Source: Camelus dromedarius (Eukaryota). Taken from it: DNA of 64,000 bases. How positions within the stretch are numbered: the stretch's first letter is position 1; each line of letters starts with the position of its first letter. The stretch covers positions 74,898,001-74,962,000 of the forward strand of contig NC_087436.1 in assembly GCF_036321535.1 (NCBI RefSeq), given 5' to 3'. The position numbers and the translations under genes were made by a program. The notes below the pieces were generated by a model, which saw only the letters and a list, made by a program, of their open reading frames with translations, was not told the origin of the DNA and ran no database searches. Shown in pieces: positions 32,101-60,875 of the stretch.

Positions 32101-33972
32101 CATTGTACAGGTCATGGGATCCAAAGAAAGGCTGCAGAACCAGGGGGAAGCCATGGGGAGCTGGGCAGCAGGACCTATGCCAAGATCACACAGGGCACTC
32201 CAGTTAAGTCACTGACTTTGAATCACTCAGTATTCCAAGTTTGGAGTGGGAACACTCTAGTTGCCATCCTGCATCTTGTGCCCTGAGTACCAGGGGCCTT
32301 TTCAGACTCCGTAGCGGAAATGAGACCTTACTGTCCCCAAGACTCACACAATAGGAGATTTCTCCAAAACAAGAAATTTTGGATGCTGAGCAGCTAAATG
32401 TACAGTACAGTATTGTCAGCTCCACTTTAAAGATGGAGAATCCAGAGAGGTTAATAACGTGCCAACAAGTGGGCAGAGTCGTGATTTTAACTCAGATCTT
32501 CCTTTCTTCTCTCTAGACCACTCTCTTTGGGAGCTTGTCTTTCATCATTCTCTTGGTCTCAGGCAACTCTTTGCCCTCATCCGTTCTCTGAAATTAGCAA
32601 GGCAAGAAAGTCTTGACTGGAGGAGATCGGGAGAAATTGAAAGGTTGCACCATTTCCCTGACTGTGGCTGTTGTGAATCATTTGGTAATAAAACAAAACT
32701 GTTTCTAAGCACAAATTAAACATTTTAAGAGCCAACTCAGCTTGAAAGAGCAGAGAGAATCACCTCCAATTTACAGTAAGGAAGAGCAATCACCGTTGCA
32801 TCACATCATCTCCCAGATGTGCCCTCTGCTGGGAGTCACTCCAAAGTCAGAGGTCTGTCACCCGTGCTGTCACGATGAATGAGTGGATAGTCCCTTGAGA
32901 CCTAACTTTTCAAAGCAAGACTGATAAACTCATGTGGCTTTGTGGAAGCTGACCTTGGGAATTAAAGTTAATGGAAATGTATATGTAGAGCAATGGAGAG
33001 GTAGTGAAATACCTTACATTTCAAATCATTTTATGTTTTATGAAGTACTTTCACATACATTAACTTCTTATATCACCCCTCTGTAGATAGGTATTTCTCC
33101 CTTTTTGTAGCTGTGAAAATTTGGAGCTCAGAGTTTAACTAGTCAGTTGAAGAACAATGAGTTCCCAAATCGAAGTCTGATTCCAGTGAAAACCTTGCAG
33201 TGTTTGAAGACAAAAGGTGTTCTTGGACAAACAAATGCATGCCACAGTGGACTACCAGCTGGGCAAGCACCTCTGTCCCCAGACAGCAGAGAGGAAGGGG
33301 AGGACCAGTGCTACCCCACGGGGGGGAGCAGACAGACAGCTGCTTGGAAGGAGGAGGACAGGGGTCCTTCCAACATTTGTCAGGGACCAAACCCAGAGAC
33401 TGGGCTGGGTGAGGGGATAAAGAGGGGCAGTGCCACTCTCTGCGCACCAGCAAAAGGGCAGCATTGCCACTGTGTGAAATGGAATTCATACTAAAAGCCA
33501 CATCATAGCAGGCCAGTCTGCTTTTCCTTAAGTGGCCTCCTGGCAATACGTGCTTGCAGTGCAAGTGAAGCTCAGCGTTAACGGTAAGAGCATTGGATTT
33601 TGAGTTAGAAAGGCTAGATTCTAGTATCTCAGGAGCTCACCAGAGTGAGTCATAAAGAGGAGGAGGGGGTGAGCTCCCAGACAACTGGCTTCAGGTCTGC
33701 AGAGATCCAGCTTCTCCCTCTGACCTGGAACCTGGGTCCACAGAGCTTCCTTGTGTGTCTCGGGCCCCAGGCAGAGACCCTGGTAAGCACCACTTCTCTG
33801 GAGAACAAGATGATGGGGGGCAATTTGTCTCTGCCACAAACAGGGACAACAATAAAAATGTTGAGACGGGGAGCTGGTCAGGGATTCCACTGATACTTGA
33901 ATCAACTGATCCATTTTGTCAACTTCATCATTAGTGCTATGGGCAGTAGCATAGCTCAAAAACTTCCATCTG

Positions 33973-41136: not shown

Positions 41137-41566
41137 TGTGATAGCCATGGGGGTTCACTGCACAGATCTCCCTCAAGGAAACAGGGCTGGCCAGTGGGGA
41201 GAAGTGCAGCTGGCTGACAGCCTCCAGGTGCTGACACCATCAGGCTGGGCTTCAACTTTCTACAGAGACCAGGCTGCTTCTGAGGGGCCCCGGCCAAGGA
41301 CTGAGCACAGCAGGGTGGTGGGGCTGGACTTCTGCTGGTCATGGAGCTCCTCTGATACACAGCCTTTTCTTGGGAGATCCTGCTGAGTTGTCATGGACAG
41401 TCAGAGCAGTGCTGCCATCAGTCGGCAGGCCCACTGCTGTTGCCTCCCTATGCTGGTCTATCACAAGAGAGAAAGAAGAAAGAGAAGAAAGAGAGGAAAG
41501 GAAAGGAAAGGAAGAAAAGAAGAGAAAGAGAGAGAGAAAGAGAGAAAGAGAGAAAGAGAGAAAGAG

Positions 41567-41613
<47 letters not shown>

Positions 41614-41635
41614 AAAGAAAGAAAGAAAGAAAGAA

Positions 41636-41691
<56 letters not shown>

Positions 41692-41692
41692 A

Positions 41693-41744
<52 letters not shown>

Positions 41745-41876
41745 AAAAGAAAGAAAGAAAAAAGAAAGAAAGAAAGGAAGGAAGAAAGAAAGGAAGGAAG
41801 AAAGAGAGAGAGAGAAACTTCTTTTACTACAACATGCATCCCAGCATATGCATCCTGGGGGACCCAGCTCACACAC
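41137..41876 (+). mobile_element. LTR16-like ERVL LTR interrupted by a microsatellite
   Basis: 5' part cagatctccctcaagga...gctggctgacagcctc; 3' part gcatcctgggggacccagctcacaca resumes after the GAAA tract. Confidence 0.55.
41465..41817 (+). repeat. (GAAA)n/(GA)n/(GGAA)n polypurine microsatellite, ~350 bp
   Basis: Seen directly; source of the K/E/R-rich and F/L/S-rich pseudo-ORFs. Confidence 0.98.
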
Positions 41877-44792
41877 CCTGTCTTTAAATATTTGGAATAC
41901 CGCCACACGAAAGAGCAAGTGTTTTCATATGGTGATAAGGGCTGAATTAGTACAAAGTGACTGAACCAGTAGGAAAGTGGCTTTCACCTGTACAGAAGGG
42001 AGAACTTTCTAACATCCAGAACTGCCCAGCAGTGGAATGGGCTGCCTCAAGACTAAGTTCCCAGGCACTACAGTCATTCAGGCCAATTGGAGGACTGCTT
42101 GGTCCATGAAGGGCGTATGACATTACTGCAACCCCCACCCCACACACACTGGAGCATCCAAGATGCTCAACATCCACAATGCTGACTGAGTAGCAAAAAT
42201 CAAATTGTTTAGGAAGCCACACCAGGAAGACCAAATCTTTGATTTTTCAGCGGCTCCACGGGTCTGGTTTCACACATCTGCACTTGGAACACATGTCCCA
42301 GGGCAGCCCAGTGGTGCTCTAGGTCAGGCCAGCCATTATCCACATATTTTTCTTGTTTTTTTTTTTTAATCAAAGAGCCCCTAGAAAGTGAGTTAAGGCT
42401 GTGGGCTGATTGTGCCCATGGGCTACTTAGCCAGATCAAAATCAAAATGCACATATGCTTTATTAAACAATCTGCAGTATGGGGTTCAGAATCTGATGAA
42501 ATTCTAACGACACCATCCACTGACACCTGGTTCTCAAGCTCAAAACCTTGCCTACTGGAGCCAGAAAGATTCTCTTCCGTGAAGCTGTTGCCTCCCTCGT
42601 TTCATCAAGACACAGCCACACCAGTGGAGGGACACACCTTTGCCCCCTTCCAGGATTCCCATGATGGTGAGACTACATATGTAATCATATCTTTCAGACA
42701 GTCAAATAAGAGGTGGGAAAGTCTGGTAAAGAAACAGTAACCTAGTCAGCATAGGGACCTTCATTAGATCTACAAATCTACTTACTGAGCACCTATCAAA
42801 GGCTGGACTCTCTTGCAGGTGCTAGGAACACAACGATGTGCCTGACAGAGTCCCTGATTTCCTGGAGGATATATTCAAATACCACTAAGAGAGTCCACTG
42901 ACCCTTCACTTAGAGAAGCAATCAAAGCCACAACCACTGATTCGATCCCAGAGCACCCCCAAATTCCTACAGCACTCCTGCCATGTATCGCCTACGTTTT
43001 CAAGAAATACTTTATTACACTAATAGTGCTCCGAAGCCAATTCATAAAATTTGCAAGAAGAGTTCAAAAAAAGCAAGCTCAGCAATTTTGAGGGCTTTTA
43101 AAACTGATGATGCAGCTGACCTACTGGAGACAAAGGCAGGGGGAGGGCCTTACTGGTACAAATAAATAGGAGTGTCCGTGCTGAGAACCCACAGTTGAGA
43201 CTCAGAGCTGAAGTCTGAACTCCACCTTGAGGCAGAATGAGGTTCACCCTGGGATTTCTGCTTCTCCTGCTGCTGGTCTGCAGCCTCTCTCCAGTCCATG
43301 GTGAGAACTTTCACTTCTGCTGTCACTGTGCTTAAATGGGAATGGTCTTCAGCCATTTCATTTTTTTTTTTTAATTAGAAAATGTGGGGAAGTAAGAATG
43401 AAGGAGGAAAAGCTGTTCAATTGCTCCTAGATTTCTAAAAGTAAGGTGCTTAGGGATTTAACCTTAGGGGCTGGAAACATTTATATTGTTGAGATTGTGG
43501 CCCAGAGAAGGAAGAGATACTGGAGGTCCAACGTCCATGTGACTTACCCTTGGTTTGCCTATTTCTGGCCTTTTTCAGATTCAGGTCTGCCTATAACTCA
43601 TTCTTTCCAGGTTTCTCTTCTTCATTGTGCCTTTTACTGATACCCCTTCTGACCAAACCCTTTATAGGGTTTAAAAACTATTGTCCTCAACCTGTTGGTC
43701 TCCCAAAGGGAACGTTTGATGCAATTTTATACAGTTAGCTCTGATGTGAACCATTGTAATAGGGATATTAAGTACACATTTTCTGCAGAGAAGCAAATTT
43801 CCAAGTCAAAATGGGGAGGTCTTCTTTGCGTAAAGAGGTAAATATCCAGTTGGTGTGGTAAATGTTTATACAGCTGAAGGAATCTGATGTATGTGTGGGA
43901 TGATACACTCTGTTCAGGTATAGATGACTAATTTTGGTTCTTAAAATGCAGGATTTTTTCCAATTTGTATTTTGCTTCATATGTTACTTTCATTCTTCAA
44001 GACCCTCATCTCTCTCTTCCTCCCTGAAGCTTTTCCATTGCTCTTGTCAAAGTCCCCTGTTCTCATTCCGGCAGCCTGAACTGCAGGTGAAATACAGCAT
44101 TGTGTGGTATTTTAGGTTTTGTTCATTTGTTTCCCCCACTAAATTGTAAATGCCCTAAGAGTGGGGTCCTTTTTATTTGCAAATACACGTCACACACAGT
44201 GGTAGGCACTGGGGTTAAAGAAGGTAGAATTGGTTAATATGCATGAGGTGGGTTACCTGTAAAAATATCCAGTGCTATTAGCTTTTATTGCTGAATACAA
44301 AGAGTTGAATTTTTATTATTAGCTTTTGTTTGGTATTGATTTGCAACTGAAATGGAGGACCAACATATTAAACAAAAACAATAAATATCTTTCGTGGCAT
44401 TTCCTTGGAGAGACAGGGAGGGTTGGTGGGGCGAGGGTGTGATGAGAGAGACAACTCTGCTACCGCTGGTTCATGCTCCGGGGACTCAGTAATGAGTTCC
44501 TGTCCTCTGTTTTATGTGTGGGGAATGAAGATCAGTCAATTTTATAACTGCATTAAGAATAACAGTTGTAAGAACTCACAGTGGCAATTTTCAAATATTA
44601 TCATAAGGACCACCACCTGAGTACCAACATAACGCTATCACAAATTTCAGTAAGTGTTGTGTTTTTAAAAAGCTAGTTCTATCTTTAAGGTTTTGGTAGA
44701 AAATATTTGAAAATAAGCCAAGACAAGCAGAAATACAGAAACTAAAGGCATAGGGTGGAAGCATCGACTTGAAATTTTTAATTTTCTAAAAA

Positions 44793-44979
44793 AACTGAAG
44801 TAGAGCTGTTTTTCAATGTTGTGTTAATTTCTGGTGTACAGCATAGTGATTCAGTTATACAAATATATATTCCTTTTCATATTCTTTTCCATTATAGGCT
44901 ATTACAAGATATTGAATATAGTTCCCTGTGCTACACAGTAGGACCTTGTTGCTTATCTATTTTATATGTGGTAGTTAGA
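44793..44979 (-). mobile_element. Short lineage-specific L1 3' end
   Basis: aatttctggtgtacagcatagtgattcagttatac...caagatattgaatatagttccctgtgcta. Confidence 0.88.
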
Positions 44980-45284
44980 AATCTTTAAATACACAGTATG
45001 AAAGACTGCTGATTAAGTTCTAGTTGTGAATTATATTCCAAAGAGATTAAAATAACCAATTCTGTGTTTATAGGTGTTTTGGAGACCCTTAACACAGACT
45101 TAAAGTGTAGATGCATGCGAGAGACCATTAAATCCTACCCTATCCGCTTCATCCAAAAGCTTCAAATCTCACCCCCTGGGAACGGATGTCCAAAAAAAGA
45201 AATAATGTAAGTCATAATAAATATATATGATTCCTCAAAGTGATTTACTTTGAGTGGTGCTAGCAATTCATTCTCAAGCTAATA

Positions 45285-45500
45285 ATGAGAATCAGCAATA
45301 CTTGTTAAGTACTTATTTGCAGGGGTCTGGAGCTAATGCACATGCTTTATGCCCATTCACACGTTTTATTCCTTCAACAGCCTTATTAAGGTATGTCTAC
45401 TGTTATCAATCCTTTAAAGATGCAGAATCGGAAGCTTAGGGAGGTTAACTAACTGCCCTGAGGCACACCATTAGAAAGGGACAGAGCCAAGACTCTTACC
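45285..45500 (-). mobile_element. MIR SINE
   Basis: ccttcaacagccttattaaggta...agatgcagaatcggaagcttagggaggttaactaactgcc. Confidence 0.75.
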
Positions 45501-46984
45501 TGCCAAATTCCAGTTGCTAGCAGAAGCAGACACTTTGTTCCCCAGAAGTTAAAGAGCAAGCAGATAAGTACCCACAACAGCCCTTGGTTGGAATGTCCAT
45601 TTTGTGGAACTGTCTTTTAGCTTTAGGTTCTATCAGCTTTGATCCCATAACTCTGATTATAAGTTAGGCTGAGGGGATAGTAGTGACTGCAAGATCTTAG
45701 ATATTTTCTTTTGTTGAAATGGCATGACCCCTTCCTTCCGTGATCCTCCCTTTTCTGTACTCCCAGAGAGCTATGTGGATGGCTTTATCAGAGCAGCCTC
45801 CACGGAACATCACATGAGACTACACATTGCAGGGAAAGCCCCTAGTACCGTGCCAGGCACGGTGGTAAATATTCAGTTAATTGTTAAATAATTGGTAAAT
45901 ATTCATTATTGCCAGTGCTTCATCCTGTACCTGGCCTAGAGAAGAGGCTCACCAAATGTTGAATTGTTGCGTTGAGTATTTGAAATGAGGCCTGTAGATC
46001 TTTTGCCCGTCCCTGCTTAGAACTGTGATTTCTTCTTCCTGGATCCACCCTGAATGAACCACACCCCCACAGCACTTCAGAGTACAGGCAGGGCATCCTT
46101 TTCAGGGCACCCCCACGGGGCTCGGCGTTCATCAGCAGATCTCCCCTTGGGCTGCTTCAGAATTTTGAGGCGTTTGGAAGCAGCCACTTTTTGTTTGTCT
46201 TATTTTGATGTCTGTGCTTTGGGTCCACTTATAACCAGGAAATACGGGGTATCAAAAATAAGCATGGAAATTCTTCATTCAAAAGGCATTGTACTTTCAC
46301 TACTGCCTTTGACAATGAACGTTTTGACTAAACCGTGACTATTGCCTTCAAACTCAGAAATGTGAAATCTAGCCATGACCTATTTGGGAGCAGTTTCTGT
46401 GACTGTCTAGAAAAACGAGGCTCCTTTCTTTTCATTACACTTTCTCTCTCTTGAGTTAAGTCTCTCATCTCTCAACCAGGGGAAGCGGTGCATCCTAATT
46501 TTCTCTACTTTGACTTCAATCGTCTTGAAGTGACAAAAATTTGATTTCATGTCTTCTGATCAAATTCTGCATTTCGGAATTTAACCAGATATAGAAACAA
46601 AAGCTGCAAATTATTATGAGAAACTCATGGCAGTCAGGAGTGAAAGTGCTGTGAGTCCAGATGGTCAGAAATCTGTTTTTCTATCATGAACTCAGAAACC
46701 AAGTTGGAAGGCTCTATTGAAGAACCCCAGTTCTATGATCTCTGACCTCTCTGAGATTCAACTTCCCAGGGTGGAATTTCAAAGTTAGATGGATGGGTCC
46801 TTGTTGTTTGTGATTTTATAGCTAAAATAAATGACACATCAAGAAATTGTTTTGTTCGAGGTCACCCCAACAGTGAGTAAAGTCTCCCAGTTTGCTGTCA
46901 CCTGTGAGACCTCACTTCTTCCACTGCAGGTAAAACATTCCACACCATATCTGGTACTTGATGACCATTCAGATCATGCCCATG

Positions 46985-47240
46985 TAGAGCAGTGGCTGAA
47001 AGTGTGGGTTCCAGAAACACATAACCATTATTTGAATCCTGCTCTACCATGCGTTTGTTGTGCAATATTATGCGATCTTTTTTAAACTCCCTAAGCCTCA
47101 AGTTCCTCATCTGAAGGTGTGGAAATAATAGTTCCTCTAGCACTGGATTTTTGTGAGATTCATCGAGATAATTCATGTTCCCTGCTGAGCACAGTGGCTG
47201 GCACATTGTAAGTGCTTGATCAATATCAGCTGTCAATTAT
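46985..47240 (+). mobile_element. MIR SINE
   Basis: tttgaatcctgctctacca...ccctaagcctcaagttcctcatctg...tggcacattgtaagtgctt. Confidence 0.8.
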
Positions 47241-49527
47241 AGGTACTGCTTCTATTGTTGCTTAATTACATAGAGCATCGGAAATCTCATTCACTGATGG
47301 TTCAGCCAAATGCAGATGTCACTCAGAGTAATCAGCTCTGCAACCTCTCCCACGATAAATTTCATTGGTTTTTTTTTTTCCCAAATAAAAGGTCCTTAAG
47401 AGAATGTTTCCTATAGTCTATTTTGTTCTCCCAAGCTCAATGGACAAACACATTTTAAAGATATTGTGATATAGCTTTAGAAGTGAGCCAACCTTGGAGT
47501 CAGCTATTTGGTCCATTTCCAATTCATATAAAGGTTGTCAACTAGATACTAACCTCTGACCTGTGAGATTCTGTCAACTCGTATTCAGTTCCACTAGCTC
47601 ACACATATCAGTCACAAAATGGTGTTTCTCTTATTCATCAGACCTCATGCTATAAATCACCTACTCCAGATCCAAAGCTGCCTACCTCCAATTTCACTTC
47701 ATGTGGAAATCATTATTTTTTTTTACTCAAATCTTTCCTTAAGTGCAGGACTGACCAAAATATAACACCACTTTATTTTGATTTATTCTCCCCCAGAGCC
47801 TGGACAAAGTCTAAGTCAATTGTCTGCTTGGATCCTAAAGCCAAATGGATACAGACACTAATATGGAGAATGTTACAGAGGTGAGCCAGGCATACCAAGA
47901 GTTTGCAGATTCCAGTTGTACTGAAGGGGCAGTCAAAATGGGGACCATTTTAAATTTGTGAAATATTCCTGAGACAAATGCCTATTCTCCACTACTATTA
48001 CTTATCAGATGGAGTTGGGGTGACTCATACCAGCAGCTGCTCAGTAAACTAAACTGGAATGAATTTGCACAGTATCCCTTATTCTATATCTCTTAGTTTC
48101 TGGTACATCTTTCTCTAACCATGACTCTCTCGTTTTAATTTCACAGAAGAAATGCTTCCTCAACTTCACCAGTTCCAGTGGTTAAGAAAAGGGCTACCTG
48201 ATGCCAATATCCCCACCAAGGACACCTGCACTACCCCTTCATTCCTGCTCTGGGTTTTAGATTTGTGTTTGGTTGTATCTTTTCCAGGAAAAAATCTTTC
48301 CCATTTAAGTAAGCATGAGAATATATGTAAAAATAAAAAAAATCTGACGGGGTGATCTTGAGCTTCTTTTGAATATAGTACCTTACATCTTGGAGTTTGC
48401 ATTCTTACTCATGAGGTAGGAAAGTTCCTTTGAGGATACTTAGTTATAAATCATATAGGTTTCTTTCAATAATATACCTGTTGTTAAATGCTTAATTTTC
48501 CTAGAAAATAAAGGAATGAGAATTTTTAAAACTCAAATCTGAACATATGGCTTGAGTTAAAGAGGAAATGATGGAATGTGTTTCAATCATTTTACACCCC
48601 AAGAAAAGCAAGCTTCCATAAGAGATTTGAAAAGCTGAATACCCATGATATTTCAGTCTGACAAGAGACAGAGGGTCCACATCATAGATATCCTTCATTT
48701 AAAAGCTCACTATTGAGAAGAACAGTGTCCTACTTTTAAAGTGTTCCTTTATAAGATTTATTGTCACAAATAAAAACTGATAATATTTAAAGATCCCCAG
48801 ATTTAAATTCATAGAATATTCAGGAAAAGCATTTAAATGGTGATCTTTAGATGTAGTCTTTTATATATTTGCTTTGACAAACTTTTTTAAAAATCACATC
48901 TTTTGCACAGACTTTTTTTTTTTTTTTTTTTTTGGTCTCTGGTGTCCAATTCTTTAATGCTTCATATTAATCTAATGCTATCCAATAAACGTGCACAAAT
49001 ATTTTACTTAATTATGAGCAATTCATTCTTAACAGAGGGTTTACTCAAATTTAGTCATTCTCTGACTCTTCATAATGAAAAGTAGGATTTCATCATGTTA
49101 ATTTTTCTTTACATGCTGCTTACATTTTAATTTGTGACCTAAATTACATGGCAAAGGGCAAGTGAAGTTATTCCTGATATTAACACAGAGGGAAATGCTT
49201 GCCTCCAAGAGCCTCTTCTCCTTGATACACTAATCATGATTTCTTCCAGAAATGCCCAAACTCTAACAAAAACCCATTTTCACTATCTCATTATATTGAT
49301 TCTGTAAACTGAAATAAATGCATAGCCTAAAAGTTGAGTTATGTTTTATTCAAAAGACATTTCTGAGGATTTGAATCCCTTCAAGCCCAGGATGACAGCC
49401 TCTCAGATAGCTCTGAGGGACTGCTCTGAAGAGATAGAGGAGGAGCCAAAATATATAGGAGTTTTACAACAAAGACCAGGTATTCAGAACATTAAAGATT
49501 ACTGTTAAAGAAAACCAGATATCTCAA

Positions 49528-52500
49528 AAAAAAAAAAAAAAAAGACATTAAAATCATAAAGGGTGGGAGATGGAGCAAGAAAATACAGATTTTTTCCTCT
49601 CTCTCTTCATTGTTTCCTTTTTTCTTTTTCTTTCTTTTTTTTTTTTTTCCTTGTTCTTTTTAGGGTGTGTTTGAGCCTACATGACTGCCAGTCTAAAGCA
49701 AACAGATACAGTAAGGGGTTAACATACTTGACATAACAGGGTAACCACAAATCAAAGGCATACAATAGAGTCACAAAAAACAAAAAGAAACCAGGCTAAT
49801 ACAAAAGAAAATTATCAAACCACTCACAAAAAAAAAAAAAAAAAAAAAAAAAAGGAAAAGGAAAAGAAAGGAACAAAGAAGAAATACCAAATCAACTGGA
49901 AAACAATGGTCAAAATGGGAATAAACACACATCTATCAATAACTACTATAAATGTCAATGGACTAAATGTTCCAATCAAAAGACATAGAGTGGGAGATTG
50001 GATAATAAAATAAAAACCTACAATATGCAGCCTAAAAGAGACCCACTTTAGAGTAAAGGACACACATACATTGAAAGTGAGAGGATGGAAAAATATATTT
50101 CATGCAAATAGAAACGACAAGAAAGCAGGAGGAGTAGCAATAATTATATCAGACAAAATCGACTTTAAAACAAAGGCCATATAGAAAGATAGAGAAGGAC
50201 ACTATGTAATGATCAAAGGATCAATACAAGATGAGGATATTACACTCATTAACATATATGCACCCAATATAGGAGCATCTACATATATAAAACAAATACT
50301 AACAGACACAAAGGGAGAAATTAATGTGAATACAATAATAGTAGGAGACTTTAACACCCCACTAACATCATTGGACAGGTCTTTCAGACTGAAAATCAAT
50401 AAGGCAATGGAGATACTAAATGACACAATAGAACAGTTGGACTTGGTTGATATTTTTAGGATATTATGTCTCCAAAACACAGAATATACATTCTTTTCAA
50501 GTGCTCATAGAACATTCTCTAGGATAGACCACATATTCAGGCACAAAAGAAGCCCCAACAAATTTAAGAGGATAGAAGTTATTTCAAGCATCTTCTCTGA
50601 TCACAATGCCATGAAACTAGAAATCAACCACAGAAAAACAAAGGAGAAAAAAAAATGACATGGAGAATAAAAAACATGTTACTAAAAAGCCAATGGGTCA
50701 ATGATGAAATCATAGAAGAAATTAAAAAATACCTTCAGACAAATGACAATGAAAACACAACCACACAAAATCTATGGGATGCAGCAAAAGCAGTCCTAAA
50801 AGAAAAGTTCATAGTGATACAGGCCTCCGTCAAAAAACAAGAACAATCTCAAATAAACCATCTAATCTACCACCTAAAAGAATTAGAAAAAGAAGAGCAA
50901 ACAAAGCCTAAAGTCATCAAGAGAAAAGAAATAATAAAGATCAGGGAGGAAATAAATAAAATGCAGATTAGAAAAAAAAAAACAATAGAAAAAAATCTAT
51001 CAAACCAAGAGCTGGTTTTTTGAAAGAACAAATAAAATGGACAAGCCTCTGCCAGGCTCTCCAAGAAGAAAAGAGAGAAGACACAAATAAACAAATAAGA
51101 AAGGAAAATAGAGAAATTACAACCAACACCACAGAAATACAAAATATCAGAAGAGAATACTATAAAGAACTATATGGCAATAAATTGGACAACTTAGAAG
51201 AAATGGATACGTTTCCAGAAACATACAGTCCACCAAAACTGAATCAACAAGATATAGATCATTTGAACAGACCAAGCACTAGAAGTGAAATAGAATCAGC
51301 AATAAAAAGCTTCCCTGCAAACAAAAGTCCAGGACCAGATGGCTTCACCAGGGAATTCTATCAAACATACAAATAAGAGCTCATATCAATCCATCTCCAA
51401 CTCTTCCTAAAGATTGAAGAGGTGGGAATACTTCCAAACTAATTCTATGAAGCCACCATCACACTGATACAAAAGCCAGACAAAGACACTACCAAAGAAG
51501 AGAACTATAGGCCAATATTGTTGATGAACATAGATGCAAAAATCCTCAAAAAATATTAGCAAACAGAATCCAACAAACATAAAAAAGATTACACACCATG
51601 ATCAAGTTGGGGTCATCCCAGGGACATAAGGATGGTTCAACATACACAAATCAATCAATGTGACTCACCACACATCAAGAGAAAGGACTAAAGTCACATA
51701 ATCATTTCAATAGATGCAAAAAATTTTTCATGAAATTCAGCACCCATTTATGATAAAAATTCTAACCAAAGTGGGTATAGAGAGAACATATCTCAACATA
51801 ATAAAAGGTATTTATGACAAACCTATAGCCAATGTAATACTCAATAGTGAAAAGCTGAAAGCTTTCTCACTGAAATCTGGGAGAAGTCAAAGATGCCCAC
51901 TCTCACCACTTCTATTCAATGTAGTATTGGAAGTCCTAGCCATAGCAATTAAACAAGAAAAAGAAATAAAAAGGATCCAAATTGGAAGAGAAGAGGTAAA
52001 ATTGTCATTATATGCGGAAGATATGATACTGTATATAGAAAACCCTTAAGACTCCACAAAAAAACTACTAGAGCTGATAAAAGAATTTGGCAAAGTAGCA
52101 GGATACAAAATTAACATACAAAAATCAGTGGCATTTCTTTACAATAACAACGAAATATCTGAAAAGAAATGTAAAGAAACAATTCCTTTTAAAATTGCAT
52201 CCAAAAAAACAAAACACTTAGGAATAAATCTGACCAAGGAAGTGAAAGACATACACAGAGAACTACAAGACACCGACTAAGCAAATTAAAGATGACTTAA
52301 AGAAAAGGAAAGATATCCCATGCTCTTGGTCTGGAAGAACTCGTATTGTTAAAATGGCCATACTACCCAAAGCAATCTATAGATTTAATACAATTTCTAT
52401 CAAATCACCCAGGACATTTTTCACAGAATTGGAACAAATAATACTAAAATTCATATGAAATCACAAAAGACCCAGAATTGCCAAAGCAATACTGAAGAAA

Positions 52501-54087
52501 AATAATGAAGCTGGAGGAATAACCCTCCCAGACTTCAGACAATACTATAGAGCTAAAATAATCAAAACAGCATGGTACTGGTACAAAAACAGACATATAT
52601 ATCAACGGAACAGAATAGAAAGCCCAGAAATAAACCCACAGACTTTTGGTCAATTACCTTTGACAAAGGAGGCAAGAAAGGAGGCCTTACAATGGATTAA
52701 GGCAGTCTCTTCAGCAAATGGTGTTGGGAAAACTGGACAGCAGCATGTAAAACAATGAAGCTAGAACACTCTCTTACACCATACACAAAAATAAACTCAA
52801 AATGGGTCAGACTTAAACATAAGACAAGATACAAAAACCTCTTAGAAGAAAACATAGGCAAAACATTATCTGACATAAATCTCAGCAATGTTCTCCTAGG
52901 GCAGTCTACCCAGGAAACAGAAATAAAAGCAAAAATAAACAAACAGGACCTATTAAACTTATAAGCGTTTGCACAGCAAAGGAAACCATAAGGAAAACAA
53001 AAAGACAACCTATGGAATGGGAGAAAAATACTTGCAAAAAATTAGACTGAAGGGCTTTATTTCCAGAATATATAAACAGCTAATACAATTTAATAAGAAA
53101 AAAAACAAACAATCCAATCCAAAAATGGGCACAAGACCTAAACAAGCAATTCTCCAATGAAGACATATAATGGCCAATAGGCCCATGAAAAAATGCTCAG
53201 TAGCACTAATATCAGAGAAATGCAGATCAAAACTTCAATGAGGTATCACCTCACACCAGTCAGAATGGCCATCATTCAAAAGCCCATGAATTATAAATGC
53301 TGTGGATAAACTGTGTGGAGAAAAGGGAACCCTCCTACCCTGTTGGTGGGAATGGAGTTTGGTGCAGCTGTTATGGAAAACAGTATGGAGATTCTTCAAA
53401 AGACTAAAAATAGACTTTATTATATGATCCAGTAATCCACTCCTGGGCATATATTCAGAGGGAAACTTAATTCAAAAAGACACATGCACTCAAATGTTTA
53501 TAGCAGCACTATATACAATAGCCAAGACAAGGAAATGACCTAAATGTCCATGGACAGATGACTGGATAAAGAAATTCAGTATATTTATACAGTGGAATAC
53601 TACTCAGTCATAAAAAAGAATAAAATAATGTCATTTACAGCAACATGGATAGAACTGGAGGTTGTCATTCTAACTGAAATAAGCCAGAAAGAGAAAGAAA
53701 AATATCATATGATATCACTTTATGTGGAATCTAAAAAAAAAGACAACCAAACATATGTAAAACAGAAAACAGACTCACAGAAATAGAGAACAAACTTATG
53801 GTTATGGGTGGGGGAAGGAGGTAGGTTGGAATAAATTGGGAGTTTTAGATTTTCAGATACTAACTAATACATATAAAATAGATAAGCAATAAGTTTATAC
53901 TGTATAACACAGGGAACTATATTCAATATCTTGTAGTAACTTATGGTGAAAACAGAATATGAAAATGAATATATGTATGTTCATGTATGACTGAAACATG
54001 CTGTACATCAGAAATTTATACAATATTATAAACTGAATACACTTCAATTAAAAAAAAAATATATATATATATAAACACATATAAAAG
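49528..54087 (+). mobile_element. 5'-truncated lineage-specific LINE-1 (~4.6 kb)
   Basis: Inter-ORF region, whole ORF2 span, 3'UTR, A/AT tail; 21-bp TSD aaagaaaaccagatatctcaa (49507-49527) / aaagaaaaccagacatcacaa (54088-54108). Confidence 0.97.
49915..53735 (+). pseudogene. LINE-1 ORF2 (endonuclease/reverse transcriptase), inactivated
   Basis: MGINTHLSITTINVNGLNVPIKR start, VGDFNTPL and FSDHN endonuclease motifs, [11 protein letters not shown] motif decayed to YAEDMILY; many stops and frameshifts. Confidence 0.93.
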
Positions 54088-54114
54088 AAAGAAAACCAGA
54101 CATCACAAGTTAAA

Positions 54115-55369
54115 AATTTAGTGCTTTTCTATGTAAAGGAAGGAGCAAACATTTGGGCTCATTGAAACCATTCCTTTGACAAGCACCTAGCTATCCAGGG
54201 CCAACTTCCTGTCCTTTCACATTCTGAGTCCCCTCAGGGTGCACCATTGTGGGTGGCTACAGACGCCCAGCTGCAGGATTGTCTTCACTGGGGGGGGGGG
54301 GGGGGGGAAGGACGATGGCGGCAGCTGCTGATGATTTGATGGCTTCAGCATTCTTTACTTACTGATGTGGCTTGCAGTATGTTTCATTCACATTGCTCCC
54401 CCTTGGTCCTAAAGTCGACCAGTATTTTGAGAGACATTTCATGACCAATTTTGTCCCACGGTGCTAGGCTCATTCCTAGATCAGGTGAAGATTCTGTCGA
54501 CATGCCACTCAAAGTGCCAATTTTTGGATCAGGCCCTGTTGATAACCAAAAATTCTCTGGATCGCCTGCCTTACTAGTCTGTTATGATCCGGGAAATGTT
54601 TTTCCCTCATTGCTCATTCCCATACCTAGAATCACACTATTACAATTATTCTTTGCAGGGTTGTAATGTGATCTATTGTTTAGCCATCTTGTCAGAGGCC
54701 TAGTTACACACTGGGAAATGTAAGAGACAACAATCTTATAAAATAGAATAAGTAATACAGTTAGGAACATTAATAAAGCCATACAAAGCATAACAATTTA
54801 GAAACAAAGAACAAATTAAAACAATGATTAGTATAACTAGTTGTAATGTAGTTGCAATAACCATCAAGTCCACAGGGGAGCCTGCTGAAGTCAAATTCTG
54901 GAAAGATCAGGTAGAGAGAAAAAGATAAATGTTTCCTTCTTGTTTACAAAGGCACACTTTATCAATTTGTTGTATGTCATAGAATAAGAGGAAAGGTTTT
55001 ATGGAAAATAAAGAATGAAGGCCAGTATGTTCCTCAAAAATCTCAAAAATCATAAGGTTATCAATCATATTTATCAGCTCATTCAGTTCCATGTAATTAA
55101 TTTCTGTTTATCTGGATGAAGTCATCAGGTTTCCATTAGAGTTTCATAATTTACCCAGTTCAGAGGTATGATCTAAAAGTTATCAGGAACACATTTGTTT
55201 AAAAGTCCCTTTTTTTGTAAATCTTCCTGAAGATCTCCATTTTATAAAAACATCAGACTGAAACAGTGACTGTTTATATAAGTGCCAAGACTTAAAATGG
55301 CATGGTTAAAGATTTGATTATAATGCAATTGACAAGCAACTTAGATGTTTCTGACATACAATATTTTAA
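54115..55369 (-). repeat. Inverted repeat, left arm (LTR U3 part + PPT + ERV internal 3' end)
   Basis: Reverse complement of 57363-58614; mirrored ORFs in the track (54451/58066, 54582/57941, 54907/57640). Confidence 0.98.
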
Positions 55370-58339
55370 ACCCTAAAATTTTATAACATAAAACTGTTTA
55401 TTTAGGAATCTTCTCACAGAAAAAAAAATCAAATTTAAAAAGATGCATTTGGACCCAGGTGACAGACAAGTTCTTTGGGAAACTAATAGCCACTATCTTT
55501 GTCTTACCAATCAGAAATGTAAATACAACAAAGAATGACCTGAGACTGAGCCTAATTATAAAACCAAAAAAAATTTTTTTGGCATTTTAAAACTCAAAAC
55601 TCTGACAAGTCCTTCAGACTTTATCAAGGACAAATACAAATCTTAGAAGTCTTTTCCATAAATAGTAAGCCTTAGTGATTTGAGCAAGCAAATTCAATTT
55701 ATTCCAACTGTTATTTATAAGCAGTAAGTTTATATTTTAATACCTAATTCATAACTAAGTTTTGAAGTGAAGCTATAAGATCTCTAGTTTTATCTGTTTA
55801 TATGTCTGTGTATACATTATAGATATGAGATGTCTCTACTGCTAAAAAATGTCAAAATTAAATTTATAAAATAGCTGTAATTAATTGACTTAGAAGTAAG
55901 TGCTTACAACTTAAATTTTCCAAAATAAAAACTGGCTAAATTGACTTTCAGGTTCATGAGAACTAGGAAATATGCAATATTAAGTTAATACCTGGTATTA
56001 AGTTTAGTTTAAGTTTGTTGATCTAATTAATACAGACACATCTTTAGAGTCATCAATATTAAGTATAATCTTTTACTGTACCTGGGTTTAATGAAAGTCA
56101 AATAAAACCTTGCTATATCTGTTGCAGATTTGTAAAAAAAAAAAAAAGTAATGAGGTGTGATAAAATTCTTATAAGTAAATTAAACACAAATGAGATAAG
56201 AGCTTTTGCTGTAAAAACGCTTTAAAAATAATTATATTTTAGAAATGTTTGCTTGAAATAATCGCTACAAATATTTGGTATCTTAAAATTCCAGACTTGT
56301 GCTAAATTAAGTTAAATGATGGGAGTTTATTAAATAACTAGGTCATTCCCAATTAAAACATTAATTACTAAACATTGGCTTCCCGTTACAGAGAAGCTAA
56401 AGGTATTTGGGACTATTGATAAATATGTTTGGTGACACCCTGAGAGATTTTCTATAAGGAGCCCATGGGTTTAGAAATTATTATTGGTGTTTATGTTTGT
56501 CAATCTACAGAATGCTAATATATAAGACAGTTCATAATTGCTTATTTTCTAGTTTTGCCTGGAAAGTAAGGATTTTAAGAGTTCAGTGTTCTAATTTAAA
56601 TATGTCGACTACTTGTTATTTAAATATATCTACTACAAATAATGAAGAAAACATTTTGGTATACAGTAGAAAAATAAAATGTGTGTTTTCAGCAAAAGAA
56701 GGTATAAGAGATAAAATTGCATTTTGCTACATAGAGTTGGTAGTTTCTAGTCGAGAGAATTAAGTGATAAAATAATATGGATACAGAAAGTGATAGAAGG
56801 TTATGGAGAAGGAATCCTGAGAAAAAGAGTTTTTGTATGGTCAGGATTGACTAAGTAAATGAGTTTTTGTTAAAAGCAAGCTGATATAAGACTGGATTTT
56901 AATTCCCTATGTTAAGAAAACAAAGTTTCTTAGAGTGCTACTTTTGATAACAGATTGTGTGTCTGTGCTTTAAGTGATTTTTATCTCTTTCTAAAACCAT
57001 TGTCACTTTGGTTGAGTAAATAAATATTGTTTCACAGTGACCTATGATTTTTATCTGACCAAGTGTTTTGAAACATTTTTTACAAGCTTCCCAAATATCA
57101 AACTTTGATTAAAGTTCTTTTGACCTCCAGCTACCTTTGGGATGCATCAGAGGGGCCTCTGAAACATCCAAAAGAGACATATTAAACTAACTAGATTTAT
57201 CTGGTATGTTAAATTATTTAAAAAAACATTGTCAAGTTATGGGGGATAAAGCTTAGGTTATATTGAGGAGATAAAAGCCACTAATATAGTTATTCCAAAA
57301 TTTGTATAAAACTCCTAAAAATCTAATATGTACTAGTATCAGTCATAATTCTAATTATTATCTTAAAATATTGTATGTCAGAAACATCTAAGTTGCTTGT
57401 CAATTGCATTATAATCAAATCTTTAACCATGCCATTTTAAGTCTTGGCACTTATATAAACAGTCACTGTTTCAGTCTGATGTTTTTATAAAATGGAGATC
57501 TTCAGGAAGATTTACAAAAAAAGGGACTTTTAAACAAATGTGTTCCTGATAACTTTTAGATCATACCTCTGAACTGGGTAAATTATGAAACTCTAATGGA
57601 AACCTGATGACTTCATCCAGATAAACAGAAATTAATTACATGGAACTGAATGAGCTGATAAATATGATTGATAACCTTATGATTTTTGAGATTTTTGAGG
57701 AACATACTGGCCTTCATTCTTTATTTTCCATAAAACCTTTCCTCTTATTCTATGACATACAACAAATTGATAAAGTGTGCCTTTGTAAACAAGAAGGAAA
57801 CATTTATCTTTTTCTCTCTACCTGATCTTTCCAGAATTTGACTTCAGCAGGCTCCCCTGTGGACTTGATGGTTATTGCAACTACATTACAACTAGTTATA
57901 CTAATCATTGTTTTAATTTGTTCTTTGTTTCTAAATTGTTATGCTTTGTATGGCTTTATTAATGTTCCTAACTGTATTACTTATTCTATTTTATAAGATT
58001 GTTGTCTCTTACATTTCCCAGTGTGTAACTAGGCCTCTGACAAGATGGCTAAACAATAGATCACATTACAACCCTGCAAAGAATAATTGTAATAGTGTGA
58101 TTCTAGGTATGGGAATGAGCAATGAGGGAAAAACATTTCCCAGATCATAACAGACTAGTAAGGCAGGCGATCCAGAGAATTTTTGGTTATCAACAGGGCC
58201 TGATCCAAAAATTGGCACTTTGAGTGGCATGTCGACAGAATCTTCACCTGATCTAGGAATGAGCCTAGCACCGTGGGACAAAATTGGTCATGAAATGTCT
58301 CTCAAAATACTGGTCGACTTTAGGACCAAGGGGGAGCAA
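55370..58339 (+). mobile_element. AT-rich non-coding ERV1 internal region (MER4-group-like, non-autonomous)
   Basis: Runs seamlessly into PPT aagggggagcaa and the LTR at 58340; no gag/pol ORFs; hydrophobic env-TM-like remnants near 57850-58050. Confidence 0.75.
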
Positions 58340-58614
58340 TGTGAATGAAACATACTGCAAGCCACATCAGTAAGTAAAGAATGCTGAAGCCATCAAATCA
58401 TCAGCAGCTGCCGCCATCGTCCTTCCCCCCCCCCCCCCCAGTGAAGACAATCCTGCAGCTGGGCGTCTGTAGCCACCCACAATGGTGCACCCTGAGGGGA
58501 CTCAGAATGTGAAAGGACAGGAAGTTGGCCCTGGATAGCTAGGTGCTTGTCAAAGGAATGGTTTCAATGAGCCCAAATGTTTGCTCCTTCCTTTACATAG
58601 AAAAGCACTAAATT
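57363..58614 (+). repeat. Inverted repeat, right arm
   Basis: I found only one substitution (54590 vs 58142) and G18 vs C15 relative to the left arm. Confidence 0.98.
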
Positions 58615-58848
58615 CTTTAACTTGAGATGCCTGGTTTTCTTTAACAGTAATCTTTAATGTTCTGACTCCCTCGTCTTTATTGTAAAACTCCTATATATCC
58701 TGGCTCCTCCCCTACTTCTTCACAGCAGTCCCTCCCTGTGATCTGGGAGGCTGTCATCCCGGGCTTGAAGGGGTTCGAGTCCTCAGAAATGTCTGCCGAA
58801 TAACACATAACTCTCAACTTTTAGGCTGTGCATTTTTCTCAGTCCACA
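58340..58848 (+). mobile_element. MER41-like ERV1 3' LTR (uninterrupted)
   Basis: tgtgaatgaaac...ctatatat...gaataacacataactctcaacttttaggctgtgcatttttctcagtccaca; preceded by a PPT. Confidence 0.92.
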
Positions 58849-59140
58849 CATGGAACCTCTCACAAAGTGAGCTGAGCCTCTGTTGCTCTGCTCATACTCA
58901 TCTGACCAATAGAGACCCAAGAAGGAAAAGATTCTGCTTTTCCAAGGGAAGCAGAATTCTCCCTTCTCCCAACTGAAGTAGCTCAGCCCCACCTTAGCAG
59001 GAAATGGCTTACCCAGCTGCATGAGTTCTGTCCTAGTCTTTTCCATTTCCCATCACCTTCCTTTCTACCATTCTCCCCTCTCACTGAGATGTGCCATTTT
59101 ACTACTCCCAGCTCTAGGTAAGGGTTGAGATATATACATA

Positions 59141-59640
59141 TGTTGGCTGAAATAAAGTGTATAACTTATAAGTTGAGAGTTACGTTTTATTTGCCAGACT
59201 TTCTGAGAACTCAAACCCAGGAGGCAGCCCCTCAGATAGCGCTAAGAGATTGTTCCAAAGAGGAGGGGGAGGAGCCAGAATACACAGGAGTTTTGCCCCA
59301 AAGACCAGGTAGTTGGATTATCAAAAGATTACTGTTAATTAAAGAAAACCAGACATCTCAGTTTAAAGAATTCAGTACTTTTCTATGTATGCAAGGGTCT
59401 GGGCTCACTGAAATCATTCCTTTGAAAAGCACCTAGCTGTCTAGGGCCAGTATCCTGTTCTTTCCCATCCTGAGTTCCCTCAGGGGGCGCCACTGGGGGT
59501 GACAGCAGAAGCCGGGCTGCCTGCTCGTCTCCATCCTGAGCTCCCTCTGCTTTCTGTCCGGGGTGGCTGTAGCAGCCGATGACTTGATGGCCACAACACC
59601 CTTTGTTTACTGGAATGGCACGCAATATTTTCTATTCACA
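59141..59640 (-). mobile_element. MER41-like ERV1 solo LTR
   Basis: Diverged homolog of the other two LTRs; TG...CA; flanks cata/tata; no PBS or PPT adjacent. Confidence 0.9.
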
Positions 59641-59846
59641 TATAGCCCAGGGTTTACTTGCTCTGAGGTAAAGTTTGGTGGTCCTTTTGAACAGAATCAA
59701 TGTGCTGGTCTACAAAACAAAAACACAAACAAACAAACAAACAAACAAACAAACAAAAAAACTGGATGGAACTGAGAAAGAGAGGAGGGCCATGAATCAG
59801 AAGGGTAATAATTAAGAGACATCACACAACTTGTGACCCTCAAGGA

Positions 59847-60875
59847 CAGAGGTTCTCCATGTGTAGTCTTTGAAGCACTATCAGTAGCATCTGGAAACTT
59901 GTTAAAATACATATTCTCAAGCCCCTCTCCAAACCTAATGAATAAGAAACTCAGGGGTTGGGCCCAGCAATCAGTGTTTAACAAACTGTGGTATAATAAA
60001 AATTATATTTGGTCTTTGTCCCTGGTTCCTGGCACAGAACTCCAAAACCCCTTGGAATTTCCTGACTGATAAGAGTGTCTTTTGTTATTCACAAAGAGTC
60101 CCTTTCAATCCTACCTGAGTGTATACTAATGAGATGACTACTGGCGGCGAACCCCTAGGTAGCTTCAGGATGGGGGTCAGTTGCCAGAGGAAACAACCAT
60201 GTGATTAGAGGTTTGGAACTTTCAGCCTCACTCCTGGACTTCCAGGGAAGGGACACAGGCTGGAGGTGCAGTCCAATCCTCAATGGCCAATGATCTAATC
60301 AATCATGCCTACATAGTGAAACCTCCATAAGAACTCCTAAACAACAGGCTTTGGAGAGTTTCTGGGCTGGTGAACACACTGAGGTGCTGGGAGGGTGGTG
60401 CACCTGGAAAGGGCATGGAAACAATGTGCCCCGCTCCCTCCACATCTTATTCTATGCATTTCTTCCATGGGGCTGTTCCTTAGCTGTATCCTTTGTCATA
60501 AACAAGGAATAGTAAATAAAGTACTTTTCCATGTTTTATGAGTCTTTCTAGCAAATTACCAAATCTGGGGTGGTGGGGGGGAGTCATGGGAATCTTCAGA
60601 TTTGTAGTTGGCTGGGCAGAAATGTGAGTAGCCTGAGCACCCCATTTGCAGTTGGCATCTGAAGTTGGGGGGGGGACAGTCCTGTGGGACTGAGCCCTTA
60701 ACCTGTGGCATCGGTGCTAGGTACAGACCATTAGCATCAGAATTTAATTGAATTGTTGGACACCCAGTTGGTATCAGAGAATTGGAAAATTGGTTCGTGG
60801 TGGTAAACACTTGAGAAAAAAAGCTTTTACAAATCTTCCAGGTGATTTTGATGGTACTAAAGTTTGAAAAGCATT
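59847..60875. mobile_element. MER5A-like MITE split by an LTR
   Basis: First half ends gggcccagcaatcagtgtttaacaa (~59985); resumes tccaggtgattttgatg...aaagtttga (~60830). Confidence 0.75.
59987..60810 (+). mobile_element. MER21-like LTR
   Basis: atatttggtctttgtccctggttcctggcacaga...gtgattagaggtttggaactttcagcc...ggacacccagttggt. Confidence 0.85.

Follow-up and report, generated by a model that had tools for sequence, protein, structure and literature searches.

Two nearly identical arms in inverted orientation lie directly 3′ of CXCL13 in Camelus dromedarius, and they probably arose, at a probability of about 0.6, from one recent template switch or one-sided repair in which LTR homology was used at one end. 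The window analysed is a stretch of 64,000 nucleotides (contig NC_087436.1, positions 74,898,001 to 74,962,000, forward strand); its relevant features are listed in Table 1.

Table 1. Features of the CXCL13 3′ region, in window coordinates
Feature	Position	Strand	Description
CXCL13 gene	43237..48201	+	coding exons ~43237-43300, 45074-45206, 47797-47880, 48147-48201
CXCL13 candidate polyA signal	48984-48989		
Left LTR, outer (3′) half	49303..49527	-	split from inner half by L1; AATAAA on LTR strand at 49345
L1, old, 5′-truncated	49528..54087	+	4560 bp, broken ORF2
Unhomogenised edge of left LTR	54088..54114	-	27 bp, 3 differences from right LTR
Left arm	54115..55369	-	1255 bp: inner LTR part (54115-54394) and ~975 bp of adjoining ERV-like internal sequence
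Spacer	55370..57362	+	1993 bp, 28% GC, without internal or end-to-end homology
Right arm	57363..58614	+	1252 bp: ERV-like internal 3′ end (57363-58340), LTR start at 58341
Right LTR, outer half	58615..58848	+	ends in CA; G/C-shifted relative to left outer half
Third solo LTR, same family, more distant	59141..59642	-	74-80% identity; served as outgroup

Identity of the arms

Self-BLAST aligns 54088-55369 with 58642-57363 at 99.45% identity over 1283 columns. In the global alignment of the core arms, a single substitution is present among 1237 non-run positions, at a CpG (54590/58142), together with a run-length difference, G18 (54290-54307) versus C15 (58425-58439), which appears as a 3-base gap; the arm divergence is 0.8e-3. 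The edges of the arms are asymmetric. The innermost 779 bp, up to the arm/spacer edge, match perfectly, whereas the 27 bp adjoining the L1 contain differences at 54100 and 54105 and a 1-bp indel at 54114. Three differences in this 27-bp edge have a probability of ~1e-5 at the difference rate of the arms and are typical at the rate of the outer LTR halves.

Farther outward, the left outer half is ~85% identical to 58622-58848 (K2P 0.154), and 49303-49506 differs from the right LTR by 29 substitutions and one 2-bp indel. At this outer rate of 13%, the chance of finding at most one difference in 1252 bp is ~4e-74. As the arms are near-identical while the outer LTR halves have diverged, homogenisation of the arms took place long after LTR divergence. 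A preliminary description of this DNA had reported the same arm coordinates, CpG substitution and run-length difference, a spacer of ~1.99 kb and an outward drop in identity (3 differences in ~27 bp, then ~29 substitutions and one indel, ~85%), all of which are confirmed by self-BLAST and alignment; its argument that the arms are too similar for their surroundings is sound in view of the chance given above.

LTRs, L1 and the neighbouring gene

Several features of ERV LTRs are present, namely a purine tract followed by TG at 58341, CA at 58848, TG at 49303 and 59141, and an AATAAA, on the LTR strand, in both the left and the third copy; the polypurine tract of the right arm is located at ~58328-58338, and three diverged LTR copies occur within the window. 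The LTR family may be MER41-like ERV1 (MER41_Vpa), and the spacer presumably corresponds to ERV1-like internal sequence continuing into the right arm. No Pfam match to gag, pol or env remains was obtained in the arm and spacer frames, which fits a non-coding internal region without proving it. MER41_Vpa is listed for camelids in a published supplement, and a search of 11 of the 16 files of that supplement did not find four motifs from the window (PMC9435751). The third LTR carries one GAS-like motif, at 59201, and its orientation is such that it faces the repeat.

Beyond either LTR end, the local alignment score is 16, compared with a shuffled mean of 17.4, and inside the spacer ends it is 20, compared with 20.5 for shuffled sequence. 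Given that the two LTRs have no common flank and that homology stops at the LTR terminus, they look like separate insertions. An old duplication including flanking DNA is ruled out by the same lack of flanking homology. The outer LTR halves would have been diverging for roughly 35 Myr.

In the L1, Pfam matches to Exo_endo_phos and RVT_1 fall in separate short frames, with 157 codons as the longest open stretch, and the 21-bp target-site copies (49507-49527 and 54088-54108) differ at two positions. These domain frames and the alignment bear out the earlier account of an old ~4.6-kb L1 with a wrecked ORF2 and target-site copies differing at 2 of 21 positions.

CXCL13 was recognised by its exon-2 frame, which matches CXCL13 in the PDB (E=9e-11) and also Pfam IL8; the exon edges were placed by eye from splice signals, and the exons sum to 336 nt, in frame. 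The first LTR piece begins ~310 bp past the candidate polyA signal. CXCL13 is autosomal in mammals, and since it adjoins the repeat, the repeat is autosomal as well. Of the 254 stop-to-stop frames that reach 62 aa, 204 were searched against Pfam profiles (the 50 omitted lying mostly in L1 copies or the simple repeat), and only CXCL13 and L1 domains scored above the cut-off. None of the 12 frames of this size in the arms and spacer has a match to a Pfam family at E up to 0.05, and an Rfam search of 43000-64000 gave no matches, so that nothing is visible that could be selected for upkeep; the repeat is probably neutral. An exact-sequence search with 10 open frames taken from the arms, the spacer and the flanks found none of them in the protein collection, and a homologue search with one 73-aa arm frame found nothing. 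Exact searches for the inner junction among metagenome contigs, and for an LTR stretch among metagenome and viral contigs, gave 0 matches, which carries no weight because mammalian DNA is not expected in such collections. A literature search, with most subscription papers outside its reach, found no paper on a camel inverted repeat near CXCL13.

Age of the last homogenisation

With a published camel mutation rate, the last homogenisation of the arms dates to ~0.18 Myr ago (95% range 0.005-1.0 Myr), a date that covers homogenisation and not the origin of the repeat (PMC7305198). The arm divergence is of the same size as the nucleotide diversity reported for camels, 0.52-0.88e-3 (PMC7305198). 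At 4.4 Myr, ~24 substitutions per arm would be expected by computation, and at 1.1 Myr ~6. If the time of a single event is taken as uniform over the ~20 Myr since L1 insertion, the chance of at most one substitution is ~2% by hand calculation; a single event must therefore be very recent, and only ascertainment offsets this low chance. A single event would be younger than ~1 Myr; it is therefore predicted to be missing from the other genera of camelids, and it may still segregate as a polymorphism.

A probable single recent copying event

In the proposed course of events, two LTRs would have inserted separately in opposite orientation, the left one now being split by the L1. At one of the LTRs, a strand that had broken or stalled could then have paired with the nearby inverted LTR, with the L1 limiting outward pairing, and could have copied the inner LTR and ~1 kb of internal sequence. 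Rejoining at 55369/55370 would have occurred without long homology, with the intervening DNA likely lost. In the simplest version, the right element would be the donor, by a template switch of the order 1-4-3-2 or by one-sided gap repair. A mirror version, in which the left element would be the donor and the spacer would be inverted (order 1-3-4-2), would yield the same product and is indistinguishable here. The left arm is likely the new copy; the substitution spectrum gives a Bayes factor of only 1.8 for the direction of donation.

The two edges are consistent with such an event. The outer switch point falls inside the LTR homology and preserves its register. The inner junction is blunt, with no homology visible beyond the arm, although microhomology could hide inside the arm when the ancestral allele is not at hand. 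At the rate of the outer edge, absence of differences in the inner 27 bp has P=0.04. In a toy simulation that assumes symmetric edges, a single recent event gave the observed edge pattern in 8.4% of 20000 runs. Recurrent conversion gave it in at most 6.0% of 300 runs at the best of 24 settings, which is close to the single-event value, and in at most 2.3% at 21 of the 24. A hairpin at the inner junction was also considered and is unsupported (z = -0.01).

The preliminary description had proposed either recurrent arm-to-arm conversion or a single template switch between the inverted LTRs. Both are reasonable, and the evidence within the window leans weakly to the latter, by the lack of a common flank, the blunt inner edge and, in a weak test, the absence of a GC step (see below).

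Recurrent conversion and other, less probable explanations

Alternatively, and in our estimate at clearly lower probability, the repeat may be old and kept identical by recurrent conversion between the arms, perhaps with spacer flips, with the L1 shielding the outer LTR halves; an older copying event followed by upkeep is included here. The required rate, c = 2u/d, is ~2.8e-5 per nt per generation (range 5e-6 to 1e-3), near the 4.5e-5 reported for primate X palindromes (PMC8981503). Conversion between transposon copies is reported to be elevated within 10 kb (PMC6598467), recurrent inversion in humans is described for flanking repeats down to 654 bp in length (PMC6748972), and long inverted repeats are described as outliving their sequence in nematodes (PMC1803023) and yeast (PMC9731477). 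Lucky timing is also unnecessary under recurrent conversion. An end of the tract as close as 27 bp to the L1, which a uniform single exit yields ~8% of the time, also speaks for it, but a stop at the L1 as such fits both explanations, as a single event would have to stop there too. On the other hand, 1.25 kb of autosomal DNA without genes would have had to undergo conversion at ~5 times the allelic autosomal rate (5.9e-6) over millions of years, and the internal arm segment would still require a founding event.

Base composition bears on this alternative in both directions. The outer LTR halves show a skew of 23:3 in the A/T-versus-G/C direction. CpG decay alone is ruled out as its cause, as 20:3 remains at non-CpG sites, and APOBEC-type editing is ruled out because G-to-A changes on the LTR strand are a minority in the site list. 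The right outer LTR is shifted toward G/C at 9 versus 3 polarised sites, with transversions at 6:0 when unpolarised, which fits long-term recombination nearby. The 23:3 skew hints at a long recombination history, beyond what a single event explains. In the homogenised part of the LTR, by contrast, 18 of 120 A/T sites and 29 of 124 G/C sites have changed relative to the third LTR, which is no clear G/C shift and speaks against recurrent conversion. The inner edge, too, lacks an eroded zone. Across the arm/spacer boundary, GC is 30.1% versus 31.1% with 700 bp per side (p=0.73), showing no step in what is a weak test with the spacer as a poor control; comparisons over 200-700 bp against this poor control give p of 0.43-0.93, and the best change point, 58017, lies within the arm. 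The test is weak because in primate X palindromes as well spacer GC is reported not to differ significantly from that of the arms (PMC8981503). In the same report, <20% of the GC excess of these palindromes is attributed to conversion since the human-macaque split (PMC8981503).

In the boldest form of recurrent conversion, which we regard as doubtful, a gene-free 1.25-kb autosomal palindrome of dead retroviral DNA would have kept its arms identical over millions of years by conversion as frequent as in X palindromes. The outer LTR halves, frozen by the L1, would then serve as a clock and as a control, and the G/C drift of the right outer LTR would record the driving recombination.

An assembly or polishing artefact, in which one arm was copied or overwritten in silico, is improbable. 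Assemblies are known to fail at inverted repeats that are nearly perfect, but the two differences between the arms are of the commonest real kinds, one being a transition at a CpG and the other a change in the length of a long G run, and the window is free of any N. Polishing would not be expected to make 85%-identical copies identical, nor would a fold-back read retain a spacer of 2 kb before passing in register into a different LTR 27 bp from the L1. Merging of two haplotypes of a heterozygous inversion would likewise not be expected to yield the 55369/55370 junction.

Selection for the duplex, as long double-stranded RNA or a CXCL13 regulatory structure, is very improbable: the element starts close to the candidate CXCL13 polyA signal, the third LTR with its GAS-like motif faces the repeat, and MER41-type LTRs are reported as interferon-gamma enhancers in cattle (PMC9435751), but the arms lie 5-10 kb beyond that signal and are separated from it by an L1 on the sense strand that has a 3′ end of its own, the two arm LTRs are directed outward and contain no GAS motif, and selection for pairing would not require identity at the DNA level.

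Comparison with known systems

The preliminary description had regarded this repeat as a candidate for an undescribed system, a claim that falls away since both explanations are already in print (PMC4617611; PMC5453318; PMC6748972; PMC1803023; PMC9731477). Inverted duplications are reported at 54% of 229 resolved human inversion sites, nearly all of them <1 kb and at most 5 kb from their source (PMC4617611). Like these 'Inverted Dup' structural variants of the 1000 Genomes Project, the repeat described here consists of a stretch and its almost identical inverted copy less than 5 kb away (99.9%, with a 1993-bp spacer), and the replication error or template switch to which the variants are attributed is the mechanism proposed here (Sudmant et al., 2015; PMC4617611). 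The arm, at 1252-1255 bp, slightly exceeds the <1 kb that is their norm without being a strict limit; unlike in those variants, one breakpoint falls, in register, inside an inverted LTR that was already there and is 85% identical, and in the present case only the allele with both copies is known (PMC4617611).

Four-point template switching yields a product of the same geometry, an inverted repeat whose spacer is either retained or inverted, and can make an imperfect inverted repeat perfect (Loytynoja and Goldman, 2017; PMC5453318). The types 1-4-3-2 and 1-3-4-2 account for 31% and 23% of the short events reported (PMC5453318). The process was modelled for short-range local mutation clusters, whereas the stretch copied here is 1.25 kb, or 3.2 kb if the spacer was inverted (PMC5453318).

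Recurrent human inversions are described between repeats >90% identical and 654 bp to 24.2 kb long, with a short segment between them, and are mostly autosomal (Aguado, 2014, PMC3961182; Giner-Delgado, 2019, PMC6748972). The present repeat falls within that range (>90% identical, at least ~650 bp), with only one spacer orientation known here (PMC6748972; PMC3961182). Non-allelic conversion between transposon copies, LTRs included, likewise leaves nearby copies too alike for their age, but the tract described here extends ~975 bp beyond the LTR into internal sequence, up to a junction without homology (Fawcett and Innan, 2019; PMC6598467).

In primate X palindromes with GC-biased conversion, the median arm divergence is 0.47e-3, the same order as the 0.8e-3 found here; unlike them, the present repeat is autosomal, 1.25 kb long and gene-free, and shows no GC step in the weak test above (Jackson et al., 2021; PMC8981503). 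Of the features that define palindromes of this type, arm identity >99% is present (1 substitution in 1237 positions and the run change), whereas X or Y location, large size and genes in the arms are absent. The analogy with sex-chromosome palindromes drawn earlier is weakened by the autosomal location and the gene-free arms. The repeat also falls within the Lirex definition of long inverted repeats (arm >30 bp, identity >85%, GC >20%), its arm/spacer ratio of 0.63 being larger than the mismatch rate (PMC5414712). That class is descriptive, without a mechanism, and the arm here is far longer than its tabulated examples, which include arms of 32-122 bp (Wang and Huang, 2017; PMC5414712).

Implications

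If relatives show concerted arms, the locus would be a compact natural experiment on autosomal non-allelic conversion with an unconverted internal control. Long-term self-maintenance, if true, would mean that small neutral inverted repeats maintain themselves on autosomes without selection, and would offer a natural measure of the reach of conversion toward a large insertion (~27 bp). If the arms instead result from the single recent event favoured here, the repeat would be an ordinary structural variant that could serve to mark lineages or populations, and it would show cleanly how a template switch of kilobase length is seeded by inverted LTRs of 85% identity. In its present form the repeat is a substrate for spacer flipping, and such an event would have placed a site that may be prone to flipping close to the 3′ side of an immune gene.

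Anatomy of the inverted repeat

The inverted repeat lying downstream of CXCL13 is real in the sequence. Self-BLAST of the window aligns 54088–55369 with the reverse complement of 57363–58642 at 99.45% identity. On alignment, the core (both arms without the 27-bp edge at 54088–54114) has a single substitution, at 54590/58142 (a CpG transition), in the 1237 positions lying outside a G run, and a run-length difference between G18 (54290–54307) and C15 (58425–58439); the 779 bp adjoining the inner edge are free of differences. In the 27 bp separating the core from the L1 there are two substitutions and an indel of 1 bp, and past the L1 the comparison of 49303–49506 with the right LTR shows 29 substitutions and a single 2-bp indel. 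The arm coordinates and all these counts of differences had been given in the preliminary description and were recovered here, the coordinates exactly. Its further claim that the arms are far more alike than their surroundings is borne out, as the probability of at most one difference in 1252 bp is ~4e-74 at the outer rate of 13%, which places arm homogenization long after LTR divergence.

Features of the inverted repeat and its surroundings
Feature	Position	Strand	Remarks
CXCL13	43237–48201	+	four exons by eye, 336 nt in total, in frame
Left LTR	49303–54394	opposite to right LTR	interrupted by L1
L1	49528–54087		within left LTR; remnants of endonuclease and reverse transcriptase, each in its own short frame
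Left arm	54115–55369	-
Spacer	55370–57362		1993 bp
Right arm	57363–58614	+
Right element	TG 58341 ... CA 58848	+	in order: internal sequence, purine tract, TG ... CA
Third LTR	~59141–59642	-	more distant copy

By its sequence order, the right element is an ERV-like 3' end plus LTR. We take the element to resemble MER41/MER4-group ERV1 repeats, and the spacer presumably runs on into the right arm. The supplement of PMC9435751 lists MER41_Vpa for both alpaca and wild camel, and four motifs from the window are absent from the 11 of its 16 files that were searched. There is no Pfam match in the arms or spacer and no Rfam match in 43000–64000. Homology between the left and right LTRs stops at their termini (local score past the termini 16, shuffled mean 17.4), and they thus look like separate insertions; the two spacer ends likewise share none (20 vs 20.5), making the inner junction (55369/55370) blunt. 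The L1 is old, as previously described, with broken ORF2 remains and two differing positions between its 21-bp target-site copies. At its 5' end (49528–49880), a T-rich stretch (~49590–49670) is loosely complementary to an A-rich one (~49820–49880), probably through low-complexity chance.

The third LTR, a same-family copy used as outgroup, is flanked by two nearly matching 4-bp sequences, the pattern expected for a solo LTR; it faces the inverted repeat and contains one GAS-like motif, at 59201, which is absent from the arm LTRs. In place of the pure G18/C15 run it has ~30 bp of mixed sequence, suggesting that the homopolymer replaced an LTR segment before arm copying.

CXCL13 in the window is apparently an intact four-exon gene (111 codons by eye), and its exon-2 frame matches solved CXCL13 structures (E=9e-11). 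The left LTR starts ~310 bp past a candidate CXCL13 polyA signal, and the 11 kb following the 3' end of the gene contain three related LTRs. The stretch 41465–41817, ~1.4 kb upstream of the start codon, is a long simple repeat of mostly pure (GAAA)n type, and an inverted pair that is small and old (114 bp, 75% identity, ~1 kb apart) lies at 31911–32024 and 33075–33185.

Dating

With a clock of 1.1e-8 per site per generation and a generation time of 5 years, values that derive from Old World camels (PMC7305198), the last arm homogenization is placed at 0.18 Myr (95% range 0.005–1.0 Myr). For the outer LTR halves the estimate is ~35 Myr; for the L1 target-site copies it is ~22 Myr, its range being very wide (2.6–78). 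The arm divergence of 0.8e-3 equals camel nucleotide diversity (0.52–0.88e-3; PMC7305198).

Single copying event or recurrent conversion

Of the two models proposed in the preliminary description, a single recent template switch is favored over recurrent arm-to-arm gene conversion: we give a probability of about 0.6 to one recent copying event having produced the near-identical arms. This reading is supported by the apparently separate insertion of the two LTRs and by a blunt inner edge opposite an outer 27-bp edge that retains three differences (at that rate, an inner 27 bp without any difference has P = 0.04). GC content does not change stepwise where arm and spacer meet (30.1% vs 31.1% in the 700 bp to either side, p = 0.73), a comparison weakened by spacers being a poor control (PMC8981503). 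Inverted duplications are also a common class: among 229 human inversion sites that could be resolved they account for 54% (PMC4617611), nearly all <1 kb and at most 5 kb from their source. In a toy simulation of 24 recurrent-conversion settings (300 runs; the single recent event given a uniform exit point), the edge pattern arose in at most 6.0% of runs under the best recurrent setting and at most 2.3% in 21 of the 24, compared with 8.4% under a single recent event; the best recurrent setting is near the single-event value, and these tests are weak. The single event must moreover be very recent, with a ~2% chance by hand calculation if timing is uniform over 20 Myr, which nothing but ascertainment offsets.

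Recurrent conversion is less likely, also when an older founding event with later upkeep is counted in. To keep the arms alike, ~2.8e-5 conversions per nt would be required in each generation, a rate near the 4.5e-5 found in primate X palindromes (PMC8981503) but ~5x the allelic autosomal rate; this is demanding in gene-free autosomal DNA, yet not impossible because in humans inversions are recurrent between repeats of as little as 654 bp (PMC6748972). The tract end at the L1 is indecisive, as single-event pairing would also be bounded there. That the inverted repeat maintains itself is doubtful. The sex-chromosome setting first invoked for recurrent conversion is inapplicable, because mammalian CXCL13 is autosomal. 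An assembly or polishing artefact is very improbable on indirect arguments, as both core differences are typical of real mutations, the switch to another LTR occurs in register, and polishing, fold-back reads or merging of inversion haplotypes would not be expected to yield the junction pattern.

For the single copying event, the following features are seen in the window: inverted related LTRs lacking common flanks, the left one carrying an old L1, and nearly perfect identity that begins 27 bp inside the L1 edge and ends at the blunt junction. A stalled or broken strand would pair with the inverted LTR, ~1.25 kb would be copied inward, and rejoining would proceed without long homology, the DNA in between likely being deleted. 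With the right element as donor (the element copied from), the order in the notation of PMC5453318 would be 1-4-3-2; if the left element were the donor and the spacer became inverted, it would be 1-3-4-2 with an identical product. The substitution spectrum of the homogenized LTR part favors the right element as donor only slightly (Bayes factor 1.8).

Skew of the outer LTR halves

Between the outer LTR halves (49303–49527 vs 58622–58848), 23 sites are A/T in the left half and G/C in the right half, and three are the reverse (p = 9e-5). CpG decay does not explain this skew, since it persists at non-CpG sites (20:3); among transversions it is 6:0. Polarized by the third LTR, a distant outgroup (K2P ~0.3), the right half shows nine changes towards G/C and three away, and the left 11 away and none towards, with four sites ambiguous. 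In a post hoc test, the pair has the strongest skew among 16 repeat-pair alignments in the window (p = 0.0003; next 0.006). The skew may be a trace of GC-biased repair at a hotspot by the right LTR, or may merely reflect local GC (26–38% in 48300–49500 vs 39–55% in 58341–60740); no other observation here hints as strongly at a long history of recombination.

Relation to known systems

The proposal of an undescribed system does not hold at the level of class: inverted duplications (PMC4617611) and self-maintained long inverted repeats of nematodes (PMC1803023) and yeast (PMC9731477) are already in print, and conversion between neighboring transposon copies has been reviewed (PMC6598467). The repeat is no member of the sex-chromosome palindromes, being autosomal, small and gene-free, although it could work alike. 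A literature search, with most subscription papers outside its reach, found no paper joining CXCL13, an inverted repeat and camel, so the locus itself may be new to the literature. Except for the usual size, the repeat has the geometry of template-switch inverted duplications, and, judged by that geometry, it would work like a kilobase-scale member of them, with inverted LTRs as the seed.
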